Below, one piece after another: positions 15,079 through 28,707 of a stretch of DNA of 32,000 nucleotides. The notes beneath the pieces are model-generated. The model was not told the origin of the DNA and did not search any database. It saw only the letters and a list, made by a program, of their open reading frames with translations. Where the stretch lies: positions 1 through 32,000 of the forward strand of contig CAYHAA010000015.1 in assembly GCA_964354495.1 (NCBI GenBank), written 5' to 3'. The position numbers were made by a program, and so were the translations under genes. Source of the DNA: an uncultured archaeon. GTDB taxonomy: Archaea; Asgardarchaeota; Thorarchaeia; Thorarchaeales; Thorarchaeaceae. Within the stretch, counting starts at the first letter, position 1; every line of letters starts with the position of its first letter.

Positions 15079-16797
15079 CTACTTCCTGATGGTGCTCATC
15101 ATCTTCTTCAGGGGATAGGTATTGATGACATCGTCTTTTGTCAGCCAGCCACGCCGTGCTTGGTAGACTCCGAATTGCATATGGTCGAGTTCTGTTGTCC
15201 AGTGAGCGTCTGTATTGATCGCTATTCGCAGGCCCATCTTGGTTGCAGTCCGCAAATTGCTGGCATTGAGATCGAGACGCTCTGGGTGTGCATTCAACTC
15301 CATCACGACATTGTTTTTCTTAGCCGACTCAAATACTGCCTCAAGGTCAATCTCAAACTCTGACCTCTTCAGAAGCAGGCGGCCAGTTGGGTGACCGAGG
15401 ATATGCACGTATTTGCTCTCAAGAGCTCGGCAGACCCGTTCAGTCATGGTCTTCCTGTCATCCTTCATTCTACTGTGGATTGATACTGTGACAATATCGA
15501 GCTGAGACAGGACCTCATCCTTGATGTCCAATGAACCATCAGACAATATATCCACCTCTGCACCCTTGAGAATCTTCATCCTCCACCGACCAGAGGCATT
15601 CAGTTCATCAATCTCATCAATGCGCCTCAACAATCGTGCCTCATCCATTCCATTGGCAATCGTGAGGCTCTGAGTGTGGTCTGATACGCAATAGTATTCG
15701 TACCTCTTTGCTTGGGCCGCATCCAGCATCTCCTCAATGGTATTCTTTCCATCAGACTGATCGGTGTGGCTGTGAAGGTCGCCACGTATATCCTTCAACT
15801 CGATGAGCGTGGGTAGAGTCCCGTTCTGAGCTGCTTCTATCTCACCCCAATCTTCTCTGAGCTCTGGTGGGATTGTGTCCATTCCAAAGCTGCGGTATAT
15901 GCCAGACTCGTCTTTTCCAGCAATCTTCTCTTCGCCTCTAAAGAGACCGTACTCGTTGAGTCTGAGCCCCTTCTTCTGTGCAATGGCACGTAGTTTCACA
16001 TTGTGGTCGATACTGCCAGTGAAGTACTGAAGACCAGCACCAAAGCTGTCAGCGGGCAGCACTCGGAGGTCCACCTGAACTCCACCTGAGAGCCGTACTG
16101 AGGATTTGGTCTCACCATGGGCAGAGATACTTGACACCTCCTTAAGGGATACAAATGTGTCCATCACGAGCTTTGGTTCAGTCGCTTCGACAAGAATGTC
16201 AACGTCACCAATTGTTTCCCTTCTCCTACGCATGGAACCTGCAATGACGAGCTGGCGAACTACAGGCAACCTGCGAAGTTGTTCCTCCACGTCACTAGCG
16301 ATTGACAGGGCATCAGCTAGAAGGGTCCTGCTCAGACCACCTCGCGCGACTTGAATCCCCTCAATAATCTGTTTCTGTGTCTTGGCTCCAAGACCAGGCA
16401 GCTGTGATAGCTTGTTCTCGTTGGCAGCCCTCTCAAGTGAGTCCAGATCAGTGACTCCTAGCCTCTCATAGACCAACTTGATTGTCTTGATGCCAACGCC
16501 GGGAACAGCATCGAGCTCCATGATTCTTATTGGAACACGTGTTCTCAATTCGTCAAGAACCGCAACATGCCCAGATTCGAGATAGCTTGTGATGACTTCA
16601 GCAAGACCCTTACCAACACCCGTAATACTGGTGAGCTCTCGACGTTCAGCCATTACAGCAACATCTTCACCAAGGGCTGCAATAGACCTGACAGCTCGTT
16701 GGTATGCCTTGACCTTGAAGGGTTCCTTTCCCTCGAACTCTAGGAGCAGGCCTATCTCCTTCAAGACTCGTGCAACCTCAGCGTTTTTTGTCAACAA
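15079..16797 (-). CDS. polX: DNA polymerase X / PHP 3'-5' exonuclease
   Basis: HhH motifs (GVGKG, GVGIKT, GLGAKT), GSMRR..GDVDIL, QVDLRV, YFTGS, and PHP motifs DLHSHT, SDH, NTDAH. Confidence 0.95.
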   Translation of the reverse strand: MLTKNAEVARVLKEIGLLLEFEGKEPFKVKAYQRAVRSIAALGEDVAVMAERRELTSITGVGKGLAEVITSYLESGHVAVLDELRTRVPIRIMELDAVPGVGIKTIKLVYERLGVTDLDSLERAANENKLSQLPGLGAKTQKQIIEGIQVARGGLSRTLLADALSIASDVEEQLRRLPVVRQLVIAGSMRRRRETIGDVDILVEATEPKLVMDTFVSLKEVSSISAHGETKSSVRLSGGVQVDLRVLPADSFGAGLQYFTGSIDHNVKLRAIAQKKGLRLNEYGLFRGEEKIAGKDESGIYRSFGMDTIPPELREDWGEIEAAQNGTLPTLIELKDIRGDLHSHTDQSDGKNTIEEMLDAAQAKRYEYYCVSDHTQSLTIANGMDEARLLRRIDEIDELNASGRWRMKILKGAEVDILSDGSLDIKDEVLSQLDIVTVSIHSRMKDDRKTMTERVCRALESKYVHILGHPTGRLLLKRSEFEIDLEAVFESAKKNNVVMELNAHPERLDLNASNLRTATKMGLRIAINTDAHWTTELDHMQFGVYQARRGWLTKDDVINTYPLKKMMSTIRK

Positions 16798-16807
16798 TCA
16801 CTTCCTC

Positions 16808-17821
16808 CTATTTGTCTCTGAATGGGTCAATCGACCGTACTGCATCTCTGACAGCTAGTACGTTTTCAGGCGGCGTATCGACAGTGATTACGCAGCCTGG
16901 AGCCACAATGAGGTGTTCAAACCCGGCCTCATCCACTGCATTCAAGACCTGCTTCTTGGCCTCATCGGGCGTCCCAGTCCTCAATACTCCGTTATGGTCG
17001 ATACCTCCCAGCACAGTCCTACGGGACCTCTTCTTGCCTTCTCTGAGTGACAGGGAAGAAGTCTGGTCCTCCCAGTTGGTGCCAACAACCCCAGGAGTTC
17101 GAGCAATCCTGTCGAATCGTATCTCTTCTTTTTGCTCTCTCGTGTGAAGATGTATGATAATGAACTTGGCCTTGCTACGCAGCTTAGAGACCATCCTCAG
17201 ATGATAAGGATAGACGAGAGTATTGTAGTGTTCATCTGAAATCGATGAGAGAGTCGAGTGTTGGGTGGCAATGAACAATCCATCAGCACCTGATTCAAGC
17301 GTGGCTCGTGCAAAATCAATCATCACGTCACAGATTAAATCAAGAGCGCTCTTCAAAATGACAGGAGCCTCATCTGCATACTTGACTAGATTATGGCCGC
17401 ATAGCCTGTCAGCCACCATGGGAGGGTCGAAGATGGTAGCCATAGTAGGAACTCTCCCGTGGGCATACCTCTGAATCAGTTCTACTGCCCGAACTTGGTT
17501 GCCGAATTCGCCGGCATTCACATCAACTGGTTCAAGGACCTCCCAGCCGGTTGAGTCTCTTATGGGATAGGAGGTCAAGGTTGTGGACCCAGTGATGGCA
17601 CCATCATATTCGGCAGTGCATCCAAAGTCAATGCATGGATAGTGACCAAAGAAGGATATCTTGAGGAGGTCATGGTCTAGCTTTCTATGAAACTCAATCT
17701 CCGCATTTGCCAGTCCCTCAGGGGTACGATCCAGGTCAGGATGATGCTTCCACAGGGAGACTGGTATCTTCTCCCCTAGGTTTCCAAGTAACGTTTCCTG
17801 TATTAGCTCATACTTTGACAT
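16808..17821 (-). CDS. Uroporphyrinogen decarboxylase (URO-D/MtaA-CmuA) superfamily protein; substrate unknown
   Basis: PVSLWKHHP, ATIFDP, GADGLFIATQ, IHLH, VLGGID, IVAPGC. Probable start is ATG 17821. Confidence 0.82.
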   Translation of the reverse strand: MSKYELIQETLLGNLGEKIPVSLWKHHPDLDRTPEGLANAEIEFHRKLDHDLLKISFFGHYPCIDFGCTAEYDGAITGSTTLTSYPIRDSTGWEVLEPVDVNAGEFGNQVRAVELIQRYAHGRVPTMATIFDPPMVADRLCGHNLVKYADEAPVILKSALDLICDVMIDFARATLESGADGLFIATQHSTLSSISDEHYNTLVYPYHLRMVSKLRSKAKFIIIHLHTREQKEEIRFDRIARTPGVVGTNWEDQTSSLSLREGKKRSRRTVLGGIDHNGVLRTGTPDEAKKQVLNAVDEAGFEHLIVAPGCVITVDTPPENVLAVRDAVRSIDPFRDK

Positions 17822-17939
17822 AGCACATCTCCACTTCCCATCCATGATAATGAGGCTTTCGAAGAGTGACATGCCATCACACATAAGTAGACTTCATGCT
17901 GGAGAGAGACAGCACCTATTTGCATGCGGTGGACACCAA

Positions 17940-19124
17940 GTGACTGAACACACTGCCCTCTATAGTCCAGAGAAACTCCTAGCTCTGGATGGTATTGATG
18001 AGCTTGAGAGAATGAAGGCAGCAATCAATCCCTTCTGGAATAGAGCACGCCTTGATGTCACGTGGAGTCTTCCAATGATGGCTGGAATGACCGGGAGTTC
18101 GAACATCTCGCTCCAGCAGATGAGGGAGGCAACAAGAGAGGAGTTGCTGACCTTCCACGATCCGTCCTACTTGGAAACACTTGATCTCTTTGGGAACATG
18201 GGATCAGCATTCTCTGCTCGATTTGGTCTAGATACTGATGATTGCCCCATCTTTCCGGGGGTTCACAAATATGCACGTCTACCAGTGGGAGGAGTGATTG
18301 ATGCCACAATAGGTGTTGCCAAGGGGAAATTCAGGAATGCGATGTCGTTTGTTGGCGGTTTTCATCATGCCATGAAGAGCCAAGCAGCTGGATTCTGCTA
18401 CCTCAACGACACAGTAGTCGCCATAAAGAGATACAAAGAGCTGAATCCTGGCAAGAAGGTCCTGTATCTCGACACGGATGTTCATCACGGTGATGGTACG
18501 CAGGAAGCATTCTATGCCGACCCTGATGTCCTCACCATATCACTTCATGAGAGCAGTATGGGGTTCTTCCCGGGAACCGGAAGATCAGACGAGATAGGAA
18601 TAGGCGAGGGAAGAGGCTACTCCGTCAATGTACCCCTTCCACCACTGACCGATGATGTTGAATACTGGAGAGCCTTCGAAGACGTCGTTGTCCCAATCTG
18701 GCGGGCCTACAAACCGGACCTTGTATTCTGGGACGTCGGAGCGGATGCACACATTGGCGATCCCTTAGCAGACCTAATGCTTACCTTTGATACGTACCAA
18801 CGTTTGACTATGACTGTCAGACAGCTTGTGCACGAGGGAGAAAGAAAGCTTGTTGCTGTCGGAGGTGGAGGCTACAACCCTGTGACAGCAGCGAAGGTAT
18901 GGACAATCGTGCTTGCAGGTCTTGCAGAGATGGCGCTACCACCAGTATTGCCAGACAAATGGCTAGAGCTGATCAAGAAGTACGGTCTCAAGACGGGGCG
19001 AGAGGGGTGGACTGACAGGCCAAGTAGGATAGACGAAGAGCACTATCCCAAGGTCAAGCGCGCAGTTGATGATGCCATCAATAAGGTGAAGGAACTCATT
19101 TTCCCTGTGTTCGGACTAGAGTGA
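17940..19124 (+). CDS. Zn-dependent histone deacetylase family (AcuC-like) deacylase; probable GTG start at 17940
   Basis: GGFHHA, GFCYLND, DTDVHHGDG, SLHE..FFPGTG, GADAHIGDPL and GGGGY are all intact. GGTGG RBS precedes the GTG. Confidence 0.92.
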   Translation: MTEHTALYSPEKLLALDGIDELERMKAAINPFWNRARLDVTWSLPMMAGMTGSSNISLQQMREATREELLTFHDPSYLETLDLFGNMGSAFSARFGLDTDDCPIFPGVHKYARLPVGGVIDATIGVAKGKFRNAMSFVGGFHHAMKSQAAGFCYLNDTVVAIKRYKELNPGKKVLYLDTDVHHGDGTQEAFYADPDVLTISLHESSMGFFPGTGRSDEIGIGEGRGYSVNVPLPPLTDDVEYWRAFEDVVVPIWRAYKPDLVFWDVGADAHIGDPLADLMLTFDTYQRLTMTVRQLVHEGERKLVAVGGGGYNPVTAAKVWTIVLAGLAEMALPPVLPDKWLELIKKYGLKTGREGWTDRPSRIDEEHYPKVKRAVDDAINKVKELIFPVFGLE

Positions 19125-19134
19125 CCATCAGTAC

Positions 19135-19785
19135 CTATACTCTCTTAGACCCCAGAAGACACCGGTGGTCAGTACTGTCAATAAAGACCTCAAGTATCTC
19201 AAAACTGCTGAACACTTCGCGCAGTTCGTTCTCTGTGAAGTAGTGATGAGGTATGCCACTCTCGGGGCCGCACATAGGAATGTAGGTTCCATCCTCGACT
19301 TGACGAAGCTGCCAGTCCTCCTCAGGATTCTCTGGCTTCGGGCCTAGAGTGGGAACAGTGATGAAGACGAAAGCGCCGGGCTTCAGAACACGCTCGATTT
19401 CAGAGACTGTGAAGACAATGTCCTTGAGCAGATTGTGATGAATCACCTGTATCGAAATCAGAGCATCAAACGATTCATCCGGGTAAGGAAATGGCTGCTC
19501 CATCAGATGCTCTCTTAGACTCGCAGAGAGACCCTCCTCATCCAACCTCCTATTGGACAGTGCAAGAGCATGTGAGGAAGAATCTATGCCATCCATCTGA
19601 AAGCCCAGTCTTGATAGATACACAAGATGTCGACCAGTGCCGCAACCTAGATCAAGGACTCTCTTGACCCCATGGCCCCTGAAGAGAACGGCAAGCCTTG
19701 ACATTTCTGGATGAGGATCAAGAAAGAAGTACCCATGTTCTCTGAAGATTTTATCCCAGGTGGGCATAGTACTGGGAGTTGCCAT
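19135..19785 (-). CDS. Class I SAM-dependent methyltransferase
   Basis: VLDLGCGTGRH, GID, FDALIS..VIHH, RVLKPG. Confidence 0.9.
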   Translation of the reverse strand: MATPSTMPTWDKIFREHGYFFLDPHPEMSRLAVLFRGHGVKRVLDLGCGTGRHLVYLSRLGFQMDGIDSSSHALALSNRRLDEEGLSASLREHLMEQPFPYPDESFDALISIQVIHHNLLKDIVFTVSEIERVLKPGAFVFITVPTLGPKPENPEEDWQLRQVEDGTYIPMCGPESGIPHHYFTENELREVFSSFEILEVFIDSTDHRCLLGSKRV

Positions 19786-19836: not shown

Positions 19837-21588
19837 GTGGCTACATCGGATTCACAAATCTCAGGAGCTCTCTCATCGATGGCAATCAGAAGGAGATACA
19901 TTGTACTGATTCTTGGTCTTATGCTGATAACAGCAGGAGTCAGCATGGCAGCATATACCCAGAGCGGCCATGGAACTGTGAGTGTCACTGAAGTCAATTT
20001 TCAAGCTGTGGACGGCTCTATGATTCATAGCACACTGCAACGTCCGACATATGCTACCAGCACTGACCCCCTGCCAGGTGTAGTCGTCATTCATGGGTCA
20101 TTGCAGAACAAGGAGTGGCTGATGGCGTTTGGTATTGAGCTCGCACGACGGGGATTTGTTGTGCTCACGATTGATGCTAACGGTCATGGCAACTCAGACC
20201 CAGGGACGGGAAGTGGAGCTGCAGCACTAGACTATATTGCTTCACGGGACTATGTCGATAACACACAGATTGGATTGATTGGCCACAGCATGGGAGGCGG
20301 TATCGCGTGGACTGCCATAGCAGGCTCAAGTGTGTACGTGCGTGCATTGGTTCTTGTTGGATCAGGCTTCAGTTCAGCAGCAGCTTACATACCAAATACG
20401 CTTGTAGCAGCCGGTAGCTTTGACTCACTCTCGAGCTATCCTAGCAACTACACTAAACTTGACCCATACTTCAATGTGACTGGGGTTGTACCTGGTATCA
20501 CATATGGTGACTTCGCAAATAATACAGCAAGGAGAGCTATTTTCCCTCCGACCAATCACCTCTTTGAAACCATAGACCCCACCATCGTGAGCGCGAGTGT
20601 TGACTGGATGAGGATGAGCCTAAAGGGAGGCGTTGAAGACGAACACTGGGTAGACAGTTCGAATCTTCTGTTTTCAGCGTGGTTGATCGGTGGCCTATTC
20701 GGACTGCTTGGTGCCATACTCACAATCTTCCCTCTGCTGGCAATACTACTGAGCCTGCCACTTTTCTCGGACCTGCGTAGAACTCCACCTCAGGAGAAAG
20801 CACAGAGCACAGGATCCATTCTGGCATATGGGACACTTTACGGCGCAATCGGGGTTGCAACATTCTTTCCTTTCTTGATTCTTGGAACATTGCTACAATT
20901 CGTGATTCCCTTCCCACAATACAATGGACTGCCAGTGATGTCATGGATGTTGGGGAGCGGGCTGATTGCAGCTGGGGCACTTAAATTGCTGCTAAGACGC
21001 CGAAGCAATCCACAGCTCAGCCTTCGCAAATTGGTATCAGTAGGGACTGAGAGAGGCCTTCCGGATATCGTCAGACTTGTCCTCTTGACAGCTATCGTCT
21101 TTGTCTGGCTATACGCCCTGACCTTGATGGTCGATCTCGGTTTCGCATTGGACCTGAGATGTTTCCTGCCCGGGCTTCATGACCTCACATTGCTGCAGGC
21201 GATTCTAGTACCCCTATACTTTGTTGTATTTCTTGTGTACTCCGTCGTAGAGGGAACTTGGTTCACGAGCATCATGTTGCCAAAGAGTACGGGGAGCTGG
21301 ACAAGAGTGCAGCTCGAATGGTCCGCAACGGCAGTCTTCATCAAGTGCATTCCATATCTCGCTCTGATCGGCATCGAGTTTCTTGGTGGTCTGATTGCGG
21401 GTGCGCCGGTCATTCCAGGTATGATTGGGTATTCATGGTTGTTCTTCTATGCCTTTACACCATGGTTTGCAATATGCACGCTAATCACTATGTTCGCATA
21501 TCGTGTGACAGGAAATAGATGGCTTGGCGCGATGGTCAATGCAATGATATGTGCATGGCTATTGGCGTCAATACTATCATTCAGGTGA
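19837..21588 (+). CDS. Alpha/beta hydrolase with N-terminal TM and C-terminal multi-TM domain
   Basis: VIHG, GHGNS, nucleophile elbow GHSMGG, candidate Asp (GSFDS) and His (TNHLFE), and many TM helices after residue ~280. Confidence 0.85.
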   Translation: MATSDSQISGALSSMAIRRRYIVLILGLMLITAGVSMAAYTQSGHGTVSVTEVNFQAVDGSMIHSTLQRPTYATSTDPLPGVVVIHGSLQNKEWLMAFGIELARRGFVVLTIDANGHGNSDPGTGSGAAALDYIASRDYVDNTQIGLIGHSMGGGIAWTAIAGSSVYVRALVLVGSGFSSAAAYIPNTLVAAGSFDSLSSYPSNYTKLDPYFNVTGVVPGITYGDFANNTARRAIFPPTNHLFETIDPTIVSASVDWMRMSLKGGVEDEHWVDSSNLLFSAWLIGGLFGLLGAILTIFPLLAILLSLPLFSDLRRTPPQEKAQSTGSILAYGTLYGAIGVATFFPFLILGTLLQFVIPFPQYNGLPVMSWMLGSGLIAAGALKLLLRRRSNPQLSLRKLVSVGTERGLPDIVRLVLLTAIVFVWLYALTLMVDLGFALDLRCFLPGLHDLTLLQAILVPLYFVVFLVYSVVEGTWFTSIMLPKSTGSWTRVQLEWSATAVFIKCIPYLALIGIEFLGGLIAGAPVIPGMIGYSWLFFYAFTPWFAICTLITMFAYRVTGNRWLGAMVNAMICAWLLASILSFR

Positions 21589-21647: not shown

Positions 21648-22547
21648 TCACTTCTTGGGATGAGTGAACAACCACTCAAGTAATCCTGTGCCAGTGGCGC
21701 CTAGCTCCTTGCACTCATGGACTGCCATCCCCTCGTAGAGCTCAGTAGAGCCACTCGGGAACTCTCGAGCGAATCGCACGAAGCTCTTGGGGCTGATCAG
21801 ATGGGACTTGAGATTGTAGGCGGTATCATCCGTTCCTATGATCCGGGTCTTTGCTCCAATGGGTATTCCAGACTCCTTGTGGGTCTCTGTCACCAGTTTC
21901 ACACTCTTGATAGGAACGTGACCATCGACATTGCTGATTCCGCCAGAGGGATGCTCTTCACCCTTGACCACATCACGTCTAAGCCCTATTGACATATCAT
22001 CAAACTGTGCATGCAGAGCAAACCAGCTCTCAATGTGCCAGTCTCGAGACCCCCAGCTCTTGTCACGCTCGCCGAGCCCCTGTATCGTTACAACATTCCC
22101 ATCTGAGAACTTGACCGTACCATGGGGCGCACCAGATTGCTCGAAATGACCAGCCCAGGATGTCCCACTTCCGCTGCCAAAATCATACGGCGGATATCGA
22201 GCAGGCCAGATGATGTCTGCCTTGAAACTCTTGCCTCTGTAGATAATCCTCCACTCCTCCATCGGTTTGACCAAGTCGTACGATAGTACGCCGTCTGTCA
22301 ACGACTCTGAAGAGTCATTAGAGAACGAGCCGAGTGGTTCACTAAAATGGACCTCACGCTCATCATCATAGAAGAGTGCAAACACGAACTCACGCTTGTT
22401 GGTGTTCGGAAGAAGGCCGATTGTAGAAAAACCGGATATCCGTGCATCAAGATCGACCCAGTTGAAGTAGTAGCTCTCACGCCAATCAGAGCGTTCATCT
22501 GCCTCATGGGCATATTCATCGCTCGATGTAAGGCGGTGTCTTCTCAA
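21648..22547 (-). CDS. Hypothetical beta-rich protein, tocopherol-cyclase/AttH/CrtC-like lipocalin fold (DUF7064/7065-like)
   Basis: WRESYYFNW, GHFEQSG..GTV, GLGERDKSWG.RDW. The family call is from recall. Confidence 0.6.
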   Translation of the reverse strand: MRRHRLTSSDEYAHEADERSDWRESYYFNWVDLDARISGFSTIGLLPNTNKREFVFALFYDDEREVHFSEPLGSFSNDSSESLTDGVLSYDLVKPMEEWRIIYRGKSFKADIIWPARYPPYDFGSGSGTSWAGHFEQSGAPHGTVKFSDGNVVTIQGLGERDKSWGSRDWHIESWFALHAQFDDMSIGLRRDVVKGEEHPSGGISNVDGHVPIKSVKLVTETHKESGIPIGAKTRIIGTDDTAYNLKSHLISPKSFVRFAREFPSGSTELYEGMAVHECKELGATGTGLLEWLFTHPKK

Positions 22548-22559
22548 CTAGGTTCACTC

Positions 22560-23726
22560 CTATTCGGGAAGTAGATAGAGAGTTGGGTCTGACTCCATTT
22601 CATCATCAAATCGACCGAATCGCATGAAAGCTGGATCCGCATCATTATCCATGAAGAAAGGCACATGCTCGTCAATGACGGCTTGGGATAGCTTCCAATC
22701 TATCCTGTCAGTGATCCCGACTTGATTTGTATAGCGAGCATAACACCTCCAATATGCTTCAGCTCCGGCAATCATGAGCTTCTTCTTGTCCCATTCTGCG
22801 AACTTCAGGTATAGCTCTGTCTGAGCAGCATCAGCGGCCTCAGCATATGCTGGGAGCTCGTCCAAGCCCAGTGCCACAATCTTCGAGCCATGTTTTGTAT
22901 ATGCACATGCATTAGTGACCAGCTTGGAGTAGTCGCCTGGCTGAACGGTCACTGTACCGATGTCATTGAAGAAGGTTGTACAGTCACGCAGTGTCATGGC
23001 GATACCAAGCGATGCAGATGGGAGTTTTGACTCTGTGTCAGACCAAGGCAGCCATAGGGCTTCTTTTCCATCATGAAGATGAGTATACTCTGAGATGATG
23101 AGAACCTCATTATGCCCAACTGGGTAGGGACCATGATCGATGATCTTTGCGCGAGCCTCGCACTCGTCCATGAAGGCATAGAGATCAACTGCGCCAATGT
23201 GACGACGAATCTTTCGTACCTGTTCCTCAGTCACAGGTTCGAAACGGTCTTTCAGCCAGTTGATGCTGCCATCGCGAAGGGCAAGGTTCACCCCTCCTGA
23301 TGATGCGACCGTGGGTTTGCCTGTATTGAAGTAGTTGGTGCCTAGTCTGTACCACTGTTCAAGCATCCATTTCCACTGCTCCTGACGCTCATTGGATTCC
23401 TTGGATGATTCGCTTTCGTGCTTGTTGAAGATCACACCCATCCTTGCTAGGCTATAGTATAGCCAGAGATAGGTGATTGACAGTGCCTGAATCTCTGAGA
23501 GAAGCGTCTTGCTCTTCTTGGCAAGCGCCTCAGGGGTGATTCTCTTCCACACTTGGGTCATCACATCAAAGAGGCGTTCGTACGTCTGGTAGAAGCCTAA
23601 GCAGATATACTCGTTCACAGGAAAGAGCTTTGACTCCAGAAGGCCACGTTCAGCAAGAATATCAGAGAAGACTTGAGACAGGTGAGTTAGTTGTTGGTTA
23701 ATCACTCTAGTATCCAATGCATTCAT
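22560..23726 (-). CDS. Hypothetical 388-aa soluble protein
   Basis: Long ORF with normal composition, 12 nt from the next gene in the same direction. No recognisable motif. Confidence 0.8.
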   Translation of the reverse strand: MNALDTRVINQQLTHLSQVFSDILAERGLLESKLFPVNEYICLGFYQTYERLFDVMTQVWKRITPEALAKKSKTLLSEIQALSITYLWLYYSLARMGVIFNKHESESSKESNERQEQWKWMLEQWYRLGTNYFNTGKPTVASSGGVNLALRDGSINWLKDRFEPVTEEQVRKIRRHIGAVDLYAFMDECEARAKIIDHGPYPVGHNEVLIISEYTHLHDGKEALWLPWSDTESKLPSASLGIAMTLRDCTTFFNDIGTVTVQPGDYSKLVTNACAYTKHGSKIVALGLDELPAYAEAADAAQTELYLKFAEWDKKKLMIAGAEAYWRCYARYTNQVGITDRIDWKLSQAVIDEHVPFFMDNDADPAFMRFGRFDDEMESDPTLYLLPE

Positions 23727-23855
23727 CTCCAGATAGGGGGATGCTCATTGAAATGATAACGCAGTGACTGTCAGTATTAAGTTGTTCGAAACCATAAGCA
23801 GTCTTATAATACGGATATTCCTAGACAGAGAAAGCTCCCGGGTGGCCGATTCCTG

Positions 23856-24206
23856 TTGAAACGAGTTGGAAACGGACTTATCTCATTGAAACTGAGTGCA
23901 GAAGGTGAACTCAGGTACGTTACTACTGTCCAGGAAGTGGTCAAGCTCTTGAAAGAGGGCCCCGATGGAAAAATAGCACTCGTGGATGATGCAGGCACCA
24001 CATTCCTTGCACCAGTTCTCTCAAGATTAGCAGGCGTTGTGTGCAGGTCTGGGGCATTGGGCTCACACCTAGCTATTGTCACTCGTGAGTTCGAGATACC
24101 GGCATTGATGGGGGTAAAAATAGAGGACCCACAAGGACTCAATGGCAAACACGCTATGATCAAACCTGAGGAGGGTGTTTCAGGAGCCCTTTATGTAGGA
24201 GAATAG
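23856..24206 (+). CDS. Stand-alone PEP-utilizing enzyme mobile (phospho-His swivel) domain
   Basis: AGVVCRSGALGSHLAIVTREFEIPALMG matches the GG.TSH.AI.ARE.GIPA..G signature. Confidence 0.88.
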   Translation: MKRVGNGLISLKLSAEGELRYVTTVQEVVKLLKEGPDGKIALVDDAGTTFLAPVLSRLAGVVCRSGALGSHLAIVTREFEIPALMGVKIEDPQGLNGKHAMIKPEEGVSGALYVGE

Positions 24207-24222
24207 TTGAGGCGCATAACAT

Positions 24223-25209
24223 TTGGATAACAGCAAGATCCCTCTGATTCAATCTCTGGACAGCATTCGACCAGAGGACGTTGAAGCTCATGGTGGTAAG
24301 GCAACAAACCTTGCCCGTCTGCGTCGCGAGGGATTTTGTACACCAAGGGGGTTTTCAATCTCAAGTCACAACTTCGTCCAGATGAGAGATGGAATTCCAG
24401 ATGTGACCCGACTTCTTGATACAATCGAAACTGCGGATGACTTCGAAGAGGTGCTTCTTCTTGCAGAAAAGATCCAGACACTGGTGAGTCTTTCTCAGTT
24501 GGGGGAGAGTCTGAAGACTGAGATTAGAGAGGAACTCCAGCGCATGCAGGAGTCAAAGACTGGTTCTGAGGCAGGCTATGCGGTTCGTTCCTCAGCCACA
24601 ATCGAGGATCGTAGTGATATCTCATTTGCAGGTCAAGCAGAGACTCTTCTCTGCATCAGAAACTCTTCGGACATACTCGAGGCTGTGAAGCAAGTCTGGA
24701 AATCAGCATATTCTCCCAGCGCGGCAATGTATCTGAAGTCCAAGAGGATTCCGTTGAAGCAAGTCAAGATGGCTGTAGTAGTTCAAGAGATGATACCTGC
24801 TGTTGTTTCAGGGGTAATGTTCACAGCTAATGTGGTGAACAACAGCACAAATGAGATGTTGATCAATGCAATTTGGGGACTAGGAGAAACCCTTGTATCA
24901 GGGAAGGTTAACCCCGACACCTTCATTCTATCGAAGAAACCGCGACGTGTTTTACAGAAGGAGCTGGGAACGAAGAAGATCACTAGTGTTGCCTCAATTT
25001 CAGAGAGCAGCACCAGGACACACGATACGCCTAGAGAGAGATGTGAGAAATTCACTCTGGACAATCAATTAGTGCTGAAAGTGGCACAGTTAGGATTAGA
25101 GATAGAAAAGAAGATGGGAGCACCTCAAGACATCGAATGGTGCATCGGGCCCGATGGTGAGATTGTAATCCTTCAATCAAGACCGATAACTACTCTCAAT
25201 ATCCCCTGA
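24223..25209 (+). CDS. Stand-alone PEP synthase/PPDK N-terminal ATP-grasp domain
   Basis: GGKATNL, AVRSSATIED..SFAGQ, VVVQEMI..GVMFT, GLGETLVSG, QDIEW..ILQSRPIT. The protein ends immediately after this domain. Confidence 0.92.
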   Translation: MDNSKIPLIQSLDSIRPEDVEAHGGKATNLARLRREGFCTPRGFSISSHNFVQMRDGIPDVTRLLDTIETADDFEEVLLLAEKIQTLVSLSQLGESLKTEIREELQRMQESKTGSEAGYAVRSSATIEDRSDISFAGQAETLLCIRNSSDILEAVKQVWKSAYSPSAAMYLKSKRIPLKQVKMAVVVQEMIPAVVSGVMFTANVVNNSTNEMLINAIWGLGETLVSGKVNPDTFILSKKPRRVLQKELGTKKITSVASISESSTRTHDTPRERCEKFTLDNQLVLKVAQLGLEIEKKMGAPQDIEWCIGPDGEIVILQSRPITTLNIP

Positions 25210-25480
25210 TCGTCATTAGCGAGTCCCCGGGTTTCACAGTGATCGCCTTTTCTGGGCAGACCCCTACACATTTCATACATCCAGTGCATTCTGAGAGCCA
25301 AATCGCATCGATGCGCCAGATCTGAGGATTATGAGGGTCTGGATGGTTCTCCAATGTCGGATGCATGAGATACACTGCGGGGTCACAGACAAAGAGACAT
25401 TTTCTGCACTCGCGCGGGTCTGTGCTAGCTCCACTATGGCACTTAGAATAGTCAATCTTGATGCTCGTTCTCTTAACCAT
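25196..25480 (-). CDS. 2x[4Fe-4S] ferredoxin-like protein (start ATG 25480)
   Basis: IKIDYSKC-x10-CRKCLFVCDP and CTGCMKCVGVCP. Confidence 0.85.
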   Translation of the reverse strand: MVKRTSIKIDYSKCHSGASTDPRECRKCLFVCDPAVYLMHPTLENHPDPHNPQIWRIDAIWLSECTGCMKCVGVCPEKAITVKPGDSLMTIRGY

Positions 25481-25490
25481 TCGACATACC

Positions 25491-26366
25491 TCAATACTTC
25501 CCAGCCTGCCCTGGAACAGACTCTCTCGGAACCAAGCTGAGCGCATCATGCTTGCATGCGTGCCTGCAGACACCACATCCAAAACACCTGTCCAAGTCTA
25601 CAATGGTCCGTTTCACAGATGGAAGATATCTGAGCGCGTTGAACTGACACATCTTGACACATGACTGGCAGCCTTGGCATTTGTCAATATCAATGTTGAT
25701 GACGTACTCACCCTTATAGACAGTCCTCAGGTTGAAGTCATTTCTCAGTCTGAGACCTCCACACTCGGGACTCTCACAGGAACAGACTGCATTGATGTAG
25801 GGTACTGGTTGGAACCAGACTGTTGCAACATAGCCCTTTTCGTTCTGCTCCCGAAGAGCTTGAATTGCTTCTTCACGGTCGAGTTTATACTTCACGCCCT
25901 CAGGGATATACCGCGTATGTTTCTCAATTATCTCTGACAACTGACCGAAGTTGATACAGACCGCATCCTTCACGCCTCTCTGCATCCATCTGCAGACACA
26001 GTAGTTCTTGATGATGGGTTCAGCTGCAAGGTTCCCAAGGATATGTTGGGCGTCCTCAAGGGGGACGACCTGTCCGAAGTGACCATCGGCTCGCACTGGA
26101 TTTCTGTTCTTCTTCTCACTATGTATCTGCGCCTCGACAACCTTGCGAATGACTCGCCCTATGATTGGCATCTGCATCTTGTAGCCTAGGCCAATGGAGT
26201 TGAATCCCATGATCTTCCGAATGAAGAGGGTTTCCATATTCTTCCACTGTTCCTCTAGGTATTCACTCGCATTGTACTCATCAGCCAGTTCGTTCCGATA
26301 AAGCCGGGCATTGTTATACCACTTGCCGCCATCTCCGTGTTTGAAACACCATTGACACATTTTCAT
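25491..26366 (-). CDS. Fe-S protein with Cys-rich core and C-terminal 2x[4Fe-4S] domain
   Basis: CQWC, YCVCR..VC, VCSCESPECG, CQGCQSCVKMCQF, CFGCGVCRHACK. Probable ATG at 26366 (ORF opens at 26414). Confidence 0.85.
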   Translation of the reverse strand: MKMCQWCFKHGDGGKWYNNARLYRNELADEYNASEYLEEQWKNMETLFIRKIMGFNSIGLGYKMQMPIIGRVIRKVVEAQIHSEKKNRNPVRADGHFGQVVPLEDAQHILGNLAAEPIIKNYCVCRWMQRGVKDAVCINFGQLSEIIEKHTRYIPEGVKYKLDREEAIQALREQNEKGYVATVWFQPVPYINAVCSCESPECGGLRLRNDFNLRTVYKGEYVINIDIDKCQGCQSCVKMCQFNALRYLPSVKRTIVDLDRCFGCGVCRHACKHDALSLVPRESVPGQAGKY

Positions 26367-26610
26367 CGCCGTATTCAATTTAGTCTTCGGGAGAGGAGTA
26401 TATTCTGAATCCAACTGCGATATTTAAGACTCCCGCCAGAGGGAAAAGATACCAAATCATGGGGTAATCAGACCTGCTTCAACAGCTATGTCGGATTGCC
26501 CTTCGATTCTGCAAGAGTTTTGGCATCAGTGGACTGAGCTTCAGCATTAAGTCGCAACAAGCCTTTTCAAATGCCGTGGTATGTAGAGAGGTCTATAGAG
26601 GAGTGCCCAT

Positions 26611-28707
26611 ATGATCCAGCTTATCGGTGTCCTGACCACAGGCGGCGTCCCCATCAAGACCAGTAGTTCAATGGATGCAGACGGGGAAATGATACTTGGC
26701 CCGCTCATAGAGGCTGCAAAGGCGCTGAGTAATGTCATAGGGAGTGGAGAAGTCAGAAAGCTGGGTTTTAGAGAGAACACTTTGATTATGACCGAGTGCA
26801 ACAAGGGATACACGATTGTCGCACTTGTGAGCAAGGCGGAAGACTACATGGACAGCCTCCTCAGAGTGATAGCTGATGCAATCGATGACTCGGACCTGGC
26901 ACCAGCAGATGGACTAGTAGATGAAATCCACACGAGAACAATTGATCAGATTCTTCGCACCTACACACGAGATCACATCGAAACAGGATTCGCAGAAACT
27001 GTATACAGCGTCTGGAATCCCACATTGAAGGCTATGATGCAAGATAAGAAACTCTCTAGTGCTCTTCAGGACGTGGAGTCACTTCTCAGTAGGGCAGAAT
27101 CCATTGAGAAGTGGAATAATCTCAAGAAGAAAACGAGGGGATCTCTCGATGATGCACTTGAACTAGCCCTTCAGGGAGAGTTCGATAGAGCATGTGCTGT
27201 GGCGATGAGTCAGGAGGGGGCACTGGCCGGCGTCTTCTGTCTGAAGATGGGTGTATTGACGCATACCATGACTAAGGCAGTTTCACCTCCAATGGCCGAA
27301 CTGAAGAGAATTGCCGCGGCTCTTCCGCAGGACTATCCTTTCACCGATCTAGCCCGGACTCTGGTAGGCTTTACAGCCGGAAACCTCATTCCTGCTGATT
27401 ACTCTCGGGCATTCAGAGAGGCAGTCAAGCATTTTGAGTTCAAAAATGATAATGAACATCTTCTACTTGGTTTTCTGTTTCTTGATGTAAGAGTTGTGGA
27501 CTACCCGGAGTTCGCCACAAGAATACACGATATGTACCGAGAGAGGTCAGATGTGTTTTGTACATTCATTGAGACTATTGACGAACGGGGCAAGTTATTC
27601 AAGAAGCTCTACTCAATCACAAGCTATGATGGGTTTCGTGACGAATTAGGAGCATATAAGTCGAAGATTACAGGTATCCTTGGAAATATCAACTGGGTGC
27701 TTGATCCAGATCTGTTATGGGAGCTTAAGAAAGAGGGCAAGGGAATTGAGATTGGTGTCACAGCGTCTCTGAAGCTGCAGAATTACATCGCGATTCTTAC
27801 TGCCTTGACTGAATCCCCCGTGCTCACAATAGACGAGCGCAGAAAGATACTCGAGGAAGTCCTCATGTTGTACCGAGACTACTTCAGGAGCCTACTGACA
27901 ACCGAGATTCCCATCTTCAGCTACACATTAGACAGTGTATTCCAGAGTCTAGGTGTTGCCTACGCAGAGTACTACTTCTTGGCGACTGGCGATGCTCGCG
28001 AACAGCATCTGAATCAATCAATGGAGTTTCTCTCAGATATCTATCGTACCATAGACAGAGAGCGGCAGAAGTCACAGGTGCAGTTCTCGGTATTTGTAGT
28101 TGCGAATTCTCTTAGTCCAATCCTTACAAGAGCAGACATCCTATCTGAAGACGAGGCGCGTCTAATCTACATCGCCATGAGATCGCTTGACGTCAATACG
28201 ATTGACGCAGAACAGATAACAAAACCAGAGGCCTATGCCACAAGCCTCGGAAATGCAATAACTGCATTGACAGCGCTCGCTGCAAGGCTCCTTAAGCGCG
28301 ACGAGAGGATAGTAGTTCTCAAGAGATGCGTGGACGTCATATTGGACACCCAAGAGTGGTTTGTTTCCAGGGGCATAATCTGCAGGGACGACATAATGTC
28401 TGCTGGTTTTCATGCCACTCTGGTCACTGGGTCCTTGAAGGCAAAGGAGCTGGAAGGAGTAGTAGACAGGGTGATTGCACTCAACCGAATTGCAGTTCAA
28501 GATCCAACAAAATACGACTACGAGGTGGCCATGATGTCGAGTCCGTATGTAGAGATACTAATGGACGCGTGCAAGCGACTGAACAACAAGAAGTACCTTC
28601 AACTGGCGAGGCAAACATTCGATTTGGCATACAAAGCTTGGATCAAGTATGGTTTTCCGGAAAAAGCTGCGAATTTCAAGAGGAAGTATGGCGAAGTCTG
28701 GAGCTAG
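26611..28707 (+). CDS. 698-aa protein with N-terminal longin/roadblock-like domain and long alpha-helical region
   Basis: The first ~120 aa follow a beta-beta-alpha-beta-beta-beta-alpha pattern (IGVLTTGGVPI..ILGPLIEAAKALS..RKLGF.ENTLI..YTIVALVS..LLRVIADAI). The remainder looks helical. Confidence 0.75.
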   Translation: MIQLIGVLTTGGVPIKTSSSMDADGEMILGPLIEAAKALSNVIGSGEVRKLGFRENTLIMTECNKGYTIVALVSKAEDYMDSLLRVIADAIDDSDLAPADGLVDEIHTRTIDQILRTYTRDHIETGFAETVYSVWNPTLKAMMQDKKLSSALQDVESLLSRAESIEKWNNLKKKTRGSLDDALELALQGEFDRACAVAMSQEGALAGVFCLKMGVLTHTMTKAVSPPMAELKRIAAALPQDYPFTDLARTLVGFTAGNLIPADYSRAFREAVKHFEFKNDNEHLLLGFLFLDVRVVDYPEFATRIHDMYRERSDVFCTFIETIDERGKLFKKLYSITSYDGFRDELGAYKSKITGILGNINWVLDPDLLWELKKEGKGIEIGVTASLKLQNYIAILTALTESPVLTIDERRKILEEVLMLYRDYFRSLLTTEIPIFSYTLDSVFQSLGVAYAEYYFLATGDAREQHLNQSMEFLSDIYRTIDRERQKSQVQFSVFVVANSLSPILTRADILSEDEARLIYIAMRSLDVNTIDAEQITKPEAYATSLGNAITALTALAARLLKRDERIVVLKRCVDVILDTQEWFVSRGIICRDDIMSAGFHATLVTGSLKAKELEGVVDRVIALNRIAVQDPTKYDYEVAMMSSPYVEILMDACKRLNNKKYLQLARQTFDLAYKAWIKYGFPEKAANFKRKYGEVWS

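Follow-up and report, generated by a model that had tools for sequence, protein, structure and literature searches.

Two divergent operons carry the parts of a proposed split dikinase

We examined a 32,000-nt stretch of DNA (the window), positions 1 to 32,000 of contig CAYHAA010000015.1 (assembly GCA_964354495.1) from an uncultured archaeon of the Thorarchaeaceae, in which the swivel and ATP-grasp modules of a phosphoenolpyruvate (PEP) synthase-like phosphotransferase are encoded by separate genes beside a gene for an orphan protein of 388 residues, here termed X388. The open reading frame (ORF) coordinates given in a preliminary description of this DNA, made from the sequence alone, were all confirmed in the window. 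On the forward strand, the swivel gene (23856-24206; 116 residues, TTG start), which encodes a PF00391 PEP-utilizers mobile domain, is followed after a spacer of 16 nt by a gene (24223-25209; 328 residues, PF01326 PPDK_N) for the ATP-grasp protein, the nucleotide-binding module of a dikinase of the type found in PEP synthase and rifampin phosphotransferase (RPH). On the reverse strand lie the gene for X388 (22560-23726), a candidate acceptor-side module receiving the phosphohistidine swivel, and, 12 nt downstream of it, the gene for a β-rich protein of 299 residues (21648-22547) with the domains DUF7065 (PF23213) and DUF7064 (PF23212), which is Rv3169-like and a candidate enzyme acting on the phosphorylated product.

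The two operons diverge from a 129-nt intergenic region (23727-23855), in which we read an A/T-rich TTATAATA, a putative promoter element, ~45 nt 5′ of the swivel start and the hexamer GGGTGG ~11 nt 5′ of the same start. Two genes for iron-sulfur (Fe-S) proteins, both on the reverse strand, converge with the ATP-grasp gene. The first encodes Fer307, a 4Fe-4S protein (ORF 25491-26414 from a TTG, likely 25491-26366, the probable start being the ATG at 26366 or 26360), and the second, 10 nt downstream, encodes Fer128, a small 2×[4Fe-4S] ferredoxin-like protein with matches to Fer4_7 and Fer4_9 (ORF 25196-25582; ~94 residues from an internal ATG, corresponding to 25196-25480). The 3′ ends of the Fer128 and ATP-grasp genes overlap by 14 nt (25196-25209).

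The ATP-grasp and swivel modules are intact and lack a barrel

The ATP-grasp protein matched PF01326 (275 bits; cut-off 27) over profile positions 4-312 of 328, and it aligns to the N-terminal third of the NCBIfam models of PEP synthase and RPH. The swivel protein scored 37.3 bits against PF00391 (cut-off 23.1). In the published swivel motif of dikinases, the catalytic His lies in a Gly-rich T/S-x-x-G-G-x-x-x-H loop (PMC12167813). The corresponding loop of the proteins aligned here has the sequence C-x-S-G-[AG]-x-G-S-H, in which Cys63, itself invariant, occupies the site of the Thr/Ser in the published motif. Residues G66, S70, H71 and R77 are invariant in the alignments, fused forms included, and all 17 stand-alone and all 3 fused sequences contain the Ser70-His71 pair. 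Thus, the preliminary view of the two genes as a tight pair with intact motifs holds for their 16-nt spacing, for their domain matches and for the catalytic residues.

The same description had noted that a PEP/pyruvate TIM barrel is not encoded in the window, and indeed no match to PF02896 was obtained there. It had also left room for a barrel elsewhere in the genome to complement the pair. The 3.3-Mb genome, which is 97.7% complete, contains a single PF02896 match, and this lies within a complete three-domain pyruvate phosphate dikinase (PPDK) of 913 residues on contig C2; therefore, the genome offers no orphan barrel to complement the split pair.

X388 represents an unannotated protein family

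X388 had no match in Pfam or NCBIfam, even at E ≤ 10. A total of 230 close homologs were found with identities of 60-93%, listed in their sources as proteins of Thorarchaeota, Hodarchaeota and Methanomethylicaceae and all annotated as 'hypothetical'. An exhaustive HMMER search placed the family in 145 clusters at 50% identity, most members being ~380 residues in length. Of the 301 Asgard genomes searched, 89 have the family, as do 13 of the 25 in the genus of the window; the X388 module is therefore accessory within Asgard. Nine non-initiator positions are conserved at ≥90% in a wide alignment, R27, L34 and R192 among them, and the Arg, His and Cys residues that are invariant across the 145 clusters include several at the docking site predicted for His71 of the swivel. 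A search for long fused forms, among proteins of 766-2185 residues, returned none, which by the tool's own account is weak evidence.

An AlphaFold2 (AF2) model of X388, built from a 26-sequence alignment, was predicted with good confidence (predicted local distance difference test (pLDDT) score 88.8, predicted template modeling (pTM) score 0.87) and consists of an N-terminal helical bundle, a central β-sheet and C-terminal helices. Foldseek searches of the PDB with this model gave no usable match (best E 0.07), nor did shape comparison with the ESM Atlas (TM ≤ 0.30). An RPH chain was not among the matches listed in the fold searches, and such an absence is no exclusion by the tools' own rule. 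In sequence space, the X388 profile matched no PDB chain at E ≤ 1 in a set that contained the RPH chains, X388 could not be aligned with the 930-residue RPH-architecture paralog from the same genome (hhalign probability 0.06%), and the PpsA-type models of NCBIfam (PRK08296) did not match it. The structural comparison of X388 with the RPH and PpsA domains, as envisaged in the preliminary description, thus matched no solved structure: it does not show X388 to be unrelated by fold, and it detected no relation to the RPH domain. X388 would, by these sequence and model comparisons, count as a new module and not as kin to the RPH substrate domain. Language-model searches gave leads to the CO2-hydration protein ChpXY (0.86) and to terpene synthases (0.80-0.83), which were dropped as they fell below 0.9 and were unsupported by the fold searches.

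The swivel is fused to X388 relatives and is predicted to dock on X388

Three distant relatives of X388 carry an N-terminal PF00391 domain, in the order swivel-X388 (P0181, 575 residues; P0198, 516 residues; P0249, 777 residues), and the invariant Ser-His pair is retained in all three. Other distant relatives show related arrangements. A metagenomic contig (L093) contains three separate swivel-X388 units, one of them fused, with a DUF7065-like gene after the fused unit. Among relatives with 25-31% identity, one locus (L111) has the order swivel, X388, third gene, and another locus with a distant relative (L110) has X388 followed by DUF7065 and a protein tyrosine phosphatase (PTP)-like gene. 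In a Joint Genome Institute (JGI) metagenome contig (L094:3968-9096), an X388 relative with 27% identity lies in an operon with the order squalene-hopene-cyclase-like gene, swivel, X388-like gene and a gene for a protein of 317 residues with a weak resemblance to cis-prenyltransferases (E = 1e-4, below the cut-off); a stand-alone ATP-grasp gene is divergent from this operon.

Structure prediction of the swivel with X388 gave an ipSAE interface score of 0.74 (0.68, 0.74 and 0.77 in individual runs), compared to 0.00 for the best control. In calibration, the mark applied to this score was reached by 58 of 80 solved complexes and by 2 of 110 mismatched pairs, a calibration that holds only roughly here, where our own alignments were used. 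At least 87% of the contacts agreed between runs, and the partner pLDDT was ≥88. The predicted interface comprises swivel residues 65-71, including S70 and H71, and X388 residues R27, L34, C189 and R192, such that His71 would be placed against R27 and R192, which are conserved throughout the X388 family. No similar complex has been solved, and hence the score is not the memory of one. Multimer prediction, proposed earlier as a check and run here on the swivel-X388 pair, therefore favors a complex whose interface contains the catalytic His. Taken with the gene order described below, X388 appears tied to the swivel by three independent lines, namely synteny, fusion and predicted docking, in keeping with the earlier proposal that X388 is coupled to the split swivel.

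The swivel, X388 and DUF7065 form a conserved core across archaea

To describe the gene neighborhood, six-frame ORFs of 80 X388 loci from species-representative genomes, found with the close X388 alignment, were searched with the proteins of the window. The hosts span at least six archaeal lineages and include Thor-, Hermod-, Hod-, Jord-, Frey-, Atabey- and other Promethearchaeota as well as Bathyarchaeia, Methanomethylicia, Brockarchaeota and Thermoproteota. A DUF7065 homolog is present in 79 of the 80 loci, the exception stopping at a contig edge, and in 72 it lies directly 3′ of X388. The swivel gene is found in 65 loci. It adjoins X388 in 61 of the 74 loci with at least 1.5 kb of upstream DNA and, where the two are adjacent (n = 64), it is divergent in 58 and co-directional in 6. 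Genes with ATP-grasp modules occur in 39 loci, 35 of them as small, stand-alone genes next to the swivel gene and 4 within a 910-residue RPH-architecture gene. The conserved core is thus swivel, X388 and DUF7065, and its recurrence in the loci of other archaea shows that the arrangement in the window did not arise by chance. The co-occurrence of the X388 family with split modules, anticipated in the preliminary description, is evident for the stand-alone swivel and is partial for the ATP-grasp gene, which is nearby in only about half of the loci.

The order of the genes differs between lineages. Thor-type loci have convergent Fer307-Fer128 and swivel-ATP-grasp operons, the latter divergent from X388-DUF7065 (Fer307-Fer128 >< ATP-grasp-swivel <> X388-DUF7065). 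Bathyarchaeia have a swivel divergent from X388-DUF7065, which in turn converges with Fer128-Fer307, and in some Promethearchaeota X388-DUF7065-Fer307-Fer128 lie on a single strand. The persistence of the association through these rearrangements is better explained by a functional module than by synteny passed down from an ancestor. In Jord- and Freyarchaeia (L076-L082), two X388 paralogs are found per operon, in the order X388b-DUF7065-swivel-X388a, which suggests two acceptor modules sharing one carrier. In a Hermodarchaeal genome (L101), the swivel-ATP-grasp pair is on a different contig from X388 and the two genes are still together. In a complete Freyarchaeia genome (L099, chromosome position G304:C1:1659517-1663503), the sole PPDK_N-bearing gene is of the PEP synthase type and is interrupted by an in-frame TAA, leaving ORFs of ~146 and 676 residues.

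Several further genes of the window adjoin the module. An α/β-hydrolase gene (19837-21588, forward strand; 583 residues with Abhydrolase_1, Hydrolase_4 and PETase-like Pfam matches), which is possibly associated, is found in 29 of the 80 loci, all of Thor-, Hod- or Hermod-type. The genes for a histone-deacetylase-family protein (17844-19124) and a S-adenosylmethionine (SAM) methyltransferase (19135-19785) remain syntenic with the module in loci of Thor- and Hod-type. These hydrolase, methyltransferase and deacetylase-like neighbors recur in Asgard loci only and may represent lineage synteny. Further upstream lie genes for a PolX-type DNA polymerase with a PHP domain (15079-16797) and a URO-D-family protein (16808-17884). 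On the other side of the module, a 698-residue ORF (26611-28707) has no Pfam or NCBIfam match, and the 15 of 80 loci with a homolog in the corresponding position next to the module share the Thor-type arrangement.

DUF7065 proteins are recurrent partners of dikinase-type kinases

The 299-residue protein scored 45.2 bits against PF23213, above the cut-off of 27, and 19.1 bits against PF23212, below the cut-off of 24.7. Its score against the NCBIfam model of the Rv3169 family (NF053593) was 42.8 bits, far under the cut-off of 150. By these profile scores, it belongs to Pfam DUF7065 and is related to the Rv3169 subfamily only distantly. Its nearest language-model clusters (scores 0.95-0.97) are led by three DUF7064/DUF7065 clusters, while lower-ranked ones carry the tocopherol-cyclase family PF14249, some together with DUF7064/DUF7065. 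The label 'cyclase/lipocalin-like' applied to the protein in the preliminary description finds an echo in these PF14249 neighbors, which amount to a lead. Residues W22, E24, R161-D162, R168 and E291 are invariant in main-line and paralogous members, and conservation of H134 and E136 is ≥90%. The conserved motifs W-x-E-S-Y-Y-F and R-D-x-S-W-G-x-R may resemble the CrtC motifs of the tocopherol-cyclase/CrtC/AttH-like β-barrel enzymes.

Contig C2 of the same genome carries a gene for a 930-residue RPH-architecture kinase (PPDK_N ... swivel) that overlaps by 7 nt a gene for a DUF7065/DUF7064 paralog of 326 residues (C2:149051-153530; L096:6052-10531), and a histidine-phosphatase-superfamily gene lies 48 nt after the paralog. 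Pairs of an RPH-architecture kinase with a DUF7065 paralog are also present in four Thermoproteota loci. DUF7065 proteins thus repeatedly accompany dikinase-type kinases, and in some cases a phosphatase follows. As the RPH-architecture kinases already have their own acceptor domain, the DUF7065 proteins that follow them are unlikely to provide an acceptor site, and DUF7065 would be better explained as an enzyme acting on a phosphorylated intermediate. The phosphatase genes, found in two independent contexts, recall by analogy the phosphorylate-transform-dephosphorylate logic of the Hpe pathway. That the lipocalin-like gene may share a pathway with the dikinase, as first suggested, agrees with its presence in nearly every X388 locus. 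A literature search found no mention of DUF7065/DUF7064, and the 15 papers mentioning Rv3169 assign it no function in title or abstract.

The Fe-S pair is frequently associated with the module

In Fer307, Fer4 families match residues 238-297 only, corresponding to a 2×[4Fe-4S] ferredoxin domain, and the alignment reveals eight invariant Cys residues in the N-terminal domain. The AF2 model of Fer307 was weak (pLDDT 65.5), and its matches to solved structures were confined to the C-terminal ferredoxin domain. Fer307 homologs (E ≤ 1e-57) are found in 48 of the 80 X388 loci, in three different arrangements, with Fer128 alongside in 47. Within the genus of the window, Fer307 and X388 occur in the identical 13 of 25 genomes, a coincidence whose support is overstated as related genomes are not independent. 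These counts favor the earlier suggestion that the Fe-S proteins may share the pathway, while the breadth of the Fer307 family, considered below, suggests a looser link. A plausible role is a redox step in the same pathway by proteins that are not exclusive to it.

The genome also encodes a Fer307 paralog (C2:92219-93088; L109:8229-9092; E = 1e-107 to the Fer307 profile) located next to genes for a thiolase and a pyridine-nucleotide-disulfide oxidoreductase. X388 is not nearby. Since the context of this paralog is unrelated, the Cys-rich Fe-S family also works outside the module.

A proposed three-protein dikinase and its alternatives

The reading that we favor, with slightly better than even confidence, is that the locus encodes a multi-component, PEP-synthase/RPH-type small-molecule dikinase with X388 as a new acceptor module. 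A three-protein dikinase with the 388-residue protein as the third module, encoded in trans, had been put forward in the preliminary description, and co-occurrence, fusions and the predicted complex all lend support to it. The coupling of the parts and the docked position of His71 are supported by the sequence comparisons and the models, and we infer from the context that X388 binds and phosphorylates a small molecule. In the proposed mechanism, the 328-residue ATP-grasp protein would bind ATP and pyrophosphorylate or phosphorylate His71 of the free swivel. The charged swivel would dock on X388, the new acceptor-side module, which would pass the phosphoryl group to the small molecule in a pocket presumably lined by R27, R95, R192 and H198-G-P-Y201, all conserved family-wide; transfer would accordingly run from ATP to the acceptor. 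The co-transcribed DUF7065/DUF7064 protein would transform the phosphorylated intermediate, most plausibly by elimination, cyclization or rearrangement with the phosphate as an activating or leaving group, and the Fe-S pair would supply or remove electrons in the same accessory pathway.

Several observations weigh against this reading. The ATP-grasp gene is near X388 in only 39 of 80 loci, and the three genomes checked from Bathyarchaeia, Methanomethylicia and Freyarchaeia contain no stand-alone PPDK_N protein, only full-length proteins of 819-914 residues. In lineages of this kind, charging of the swivel has to come from PEP synthase acting in trans or from another donor. No similarity of X388 to a recognized acceptor domain was detected, and its acceptor role would follow from context; likewise, the swivel-X388 complex reflects the confidence of a model and not a measurement. 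Finally, the Fer307 family is present in 162 of 301 Asgard genomes, including families without X388, versus 89 of 301 for X388, and the link of the Fe-S proteins to the module may thus be loose.

The substrate can be guessed at only tentatively. Our leading guess, a weak lead that we would not press, is a hydrophobic or isoprenoid alcohol, because the tocopherol-cyclase family is among the lower-ranked DUF7065 clusters, because the L094 operon has terpene-cyclase-like and prenyltransferase-like neighbors and because of the weak language-model matches. Among these, the L094 operon alone hints directly at an isoprenoid substrate. A more specific extension, which as a whole we regard as rather improbable, is a hitherto undescribed, phosphorylation-driven carbocation pathway of anaerobic archaea, in which the three-part dikinase with its new-fold acceptor would phosphorylate an isoprenoid-type, possibly tertiary, alcohol, the CrtC/tocopherol-cyclase-like DUF7065/DUF7064 protein would ionize the phosphoester to give an alkene or a cyclized product, and the Cys-rich Fe-S protein and the ferredoxin would carry out a coupled redox step. 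Were this the case, it would give the DUF7065/DUF7064 (Rv3169-like) family its first function, as partners of kinases.

The absence of a stand-alone ATP-grasp gene from the three genomes that have the core also fits a different arrangement, in which swivel, X388 and DUF7065 act independently of the ATP-grasp protein. X388 would then be a donor-side site that takes phosphate from a high-energy phospho-metabolite or PEP, and where the ATP-grasp protein is present the flow would run toward ATP synthesis, in the manner of PPDK in reverse. PPDK indeed works in the ATP-forming direction in some anaerobes, and the core triad is far more conserved (79 to 65 of 80 loci) than adjacency to the ATP-grasp gene (39 of 80). 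If true, such ATP synthesis would be useful to energy-limited anaerobes. We nonetheless judge this arrangement unlikely: the ATP-grasp and swivel genes of the window form a tight operon and the pair stays joined in the Hermodarchaeal genome in which it is unlinked from X388, no candidate high-energy donor is known, and the characterized RPH/PpsAB-type enzymes all run from ATP to the acceptor (PMC12167813). Somewhat less probable again is that X388 is a non-catalytic scaffold, regulator or chaperone of the swivel, with the acceptor site in DUF7065/DUF7064 or elsewhere. X388 has no recognizable catalytic fold and DUF7065 is always present with it, as this would predict, whereas DUF7065 paralogs follow kinases with an acceptor domain of their own, the invariant Arg, His and Cys residues of X388 cluster in part at the predicted docking site, and identities of 60-93% across phyla are typical of an enzyme.

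The patchy, accessory distribution of X388 (13 of 25 genomes in the genus, 89 of 301 in the phylum) and its high identity across archaeal phyla, suggestive of lateral spread, would suit a resistance or detoxification kinase that inactivates an environmental antibiotic or xenobiotic in an RPH-like manner, and the RPH family does include antibiotic-inactivating enzymes. The obligatory DUF7065 and frequent Fe-S pair point instead to a multi-step pathway and not to one-step inactivation, and the terpene-cyclase-like, enoyl-CoA hydratase and acyl-CoA ligase genes that adjoin relatives fit metabolism; we give this explanation a low probability. Least credible, and disfavored, is that the swivel and ATP-grasp proteins represent fragments of a conventional PEP synthase or PPDK, either decaying or complemented by the PPDK barrel. 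The best NCBIfam matches do include PEP synthase models. Yet the only barrel of the genome resides in its complete 913-residue PPDK, both genes of the split pair are intact, dozens of genomes conserve them, invariably together or beside X388, and swivel-X388 fusions exist.

Relation to known His-swivel dikinases

The mechanism class to which the locus would belong, that of His-swivel dikinases, is already known. To our knowledge, the acceptor modules of these enzymes are of two kinds, namely the PEP/pyruvate barrel and the RPH-type substrate domain. The locus suggests a third kind, represented by ~145 clusters at 50% identity that lack annotation. The three-way split, the X388 acceptor family, the fixed DUF7065/DUF7064 partner, the Fe-S association and the wide archaeal distribution were not described in the libraries and papers searched, and the sole hit of a literature search on archaeal phenylphosphate synthase, which also mentions Bathyarchaeota, was a general metagenome survey of the Gulf of Mexico. 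Asgard, Bathyarchaeia and Methanomethylicia genomes from anoxic sediments commonly carry the module, which probably marks an uncharacterized metabolic capability of these uncultured groups. The finding that DUF7065/DUF7064 proteins follow dikinase-type kinases provides a first testable hypothesis for this family, namely action on phosphorylated intermediates. All of the components are small and soluble, such that the hypothesis is open to direct in vitro testing.

The PF01326 and PF00391 modules of PEP synthase and PPDK are homologous to the pair at the locus; in contrast to those enzymes, the PF02896 barrel is not associated with the module. RPH (PRK06241 family) shares the same ATP-grasp and swivel modules, and the mechanism, from ATP to His to acceptor, is presumed to be the same. 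However, RPH is a single chain composed of the ATP-grasp, a rifampin (RIF)-binding domain and the swivel. For the chemistry that may follow phosphorylation, the 25-hydroxysteroid kinase of Sterolibacterium provides a conceptual analogy only, in that an isoprenoid-type alcohol is phosphorylated and a second enzyme uses the phosphate as a leaving group. That kinase is a phosphotransferase of ~40 kDa, and the phospho-steroid C-O lyase was unidentified in the 2021 paper, with no candidate gene near the kinase (PMC8449060). The kinase is unrelated to the dikinase of the locus and nothing links the lyase to DUF7065; a published link between DUF7065 and the missing 25-phosphosteroid lyase was looked for and none was found, and we keep the system as a lead for chemistry, not as a relative.

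The closest parallels are two-component small-molecule dikinases, namely HpeHI, CreHI and the phenylphosphate synthase PpsAB. Their ATP-grasp module is a free protein of ~40 kDa that charges a His-swivel on another polypeptide, the swivel phosphorylates a phenolic hydroxyl, and it does so as a C-terminal fusion to an RPH-type substrate-binding domain in a protein of ~70 kDa (PMC12167813). The locus described here similarly has a free ATP-grasp protein and a separate swivel chain and lacks a PEP/pyruvate barrel. It differs in that its swivel is a free protein of 116 residues, giving three separate proteins, and in that sequence comparison of X388 with the RPH-type domain detected no similarity and X388, where fused, follows the swivel. 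Moreover, its partners are DUF7065/DUF7064 and Fe-S proteins rather than UbiD-type carboxylases, and its hosts are anaerobic archaea. In the HpeHI, CreHI and PpsAB systems, the kinase opens a multi-step pathway whose later enzymes act on the phospho-intermediate, and we propose that the split dikinase of the Thorarchaeal locus may be alike in this respect.

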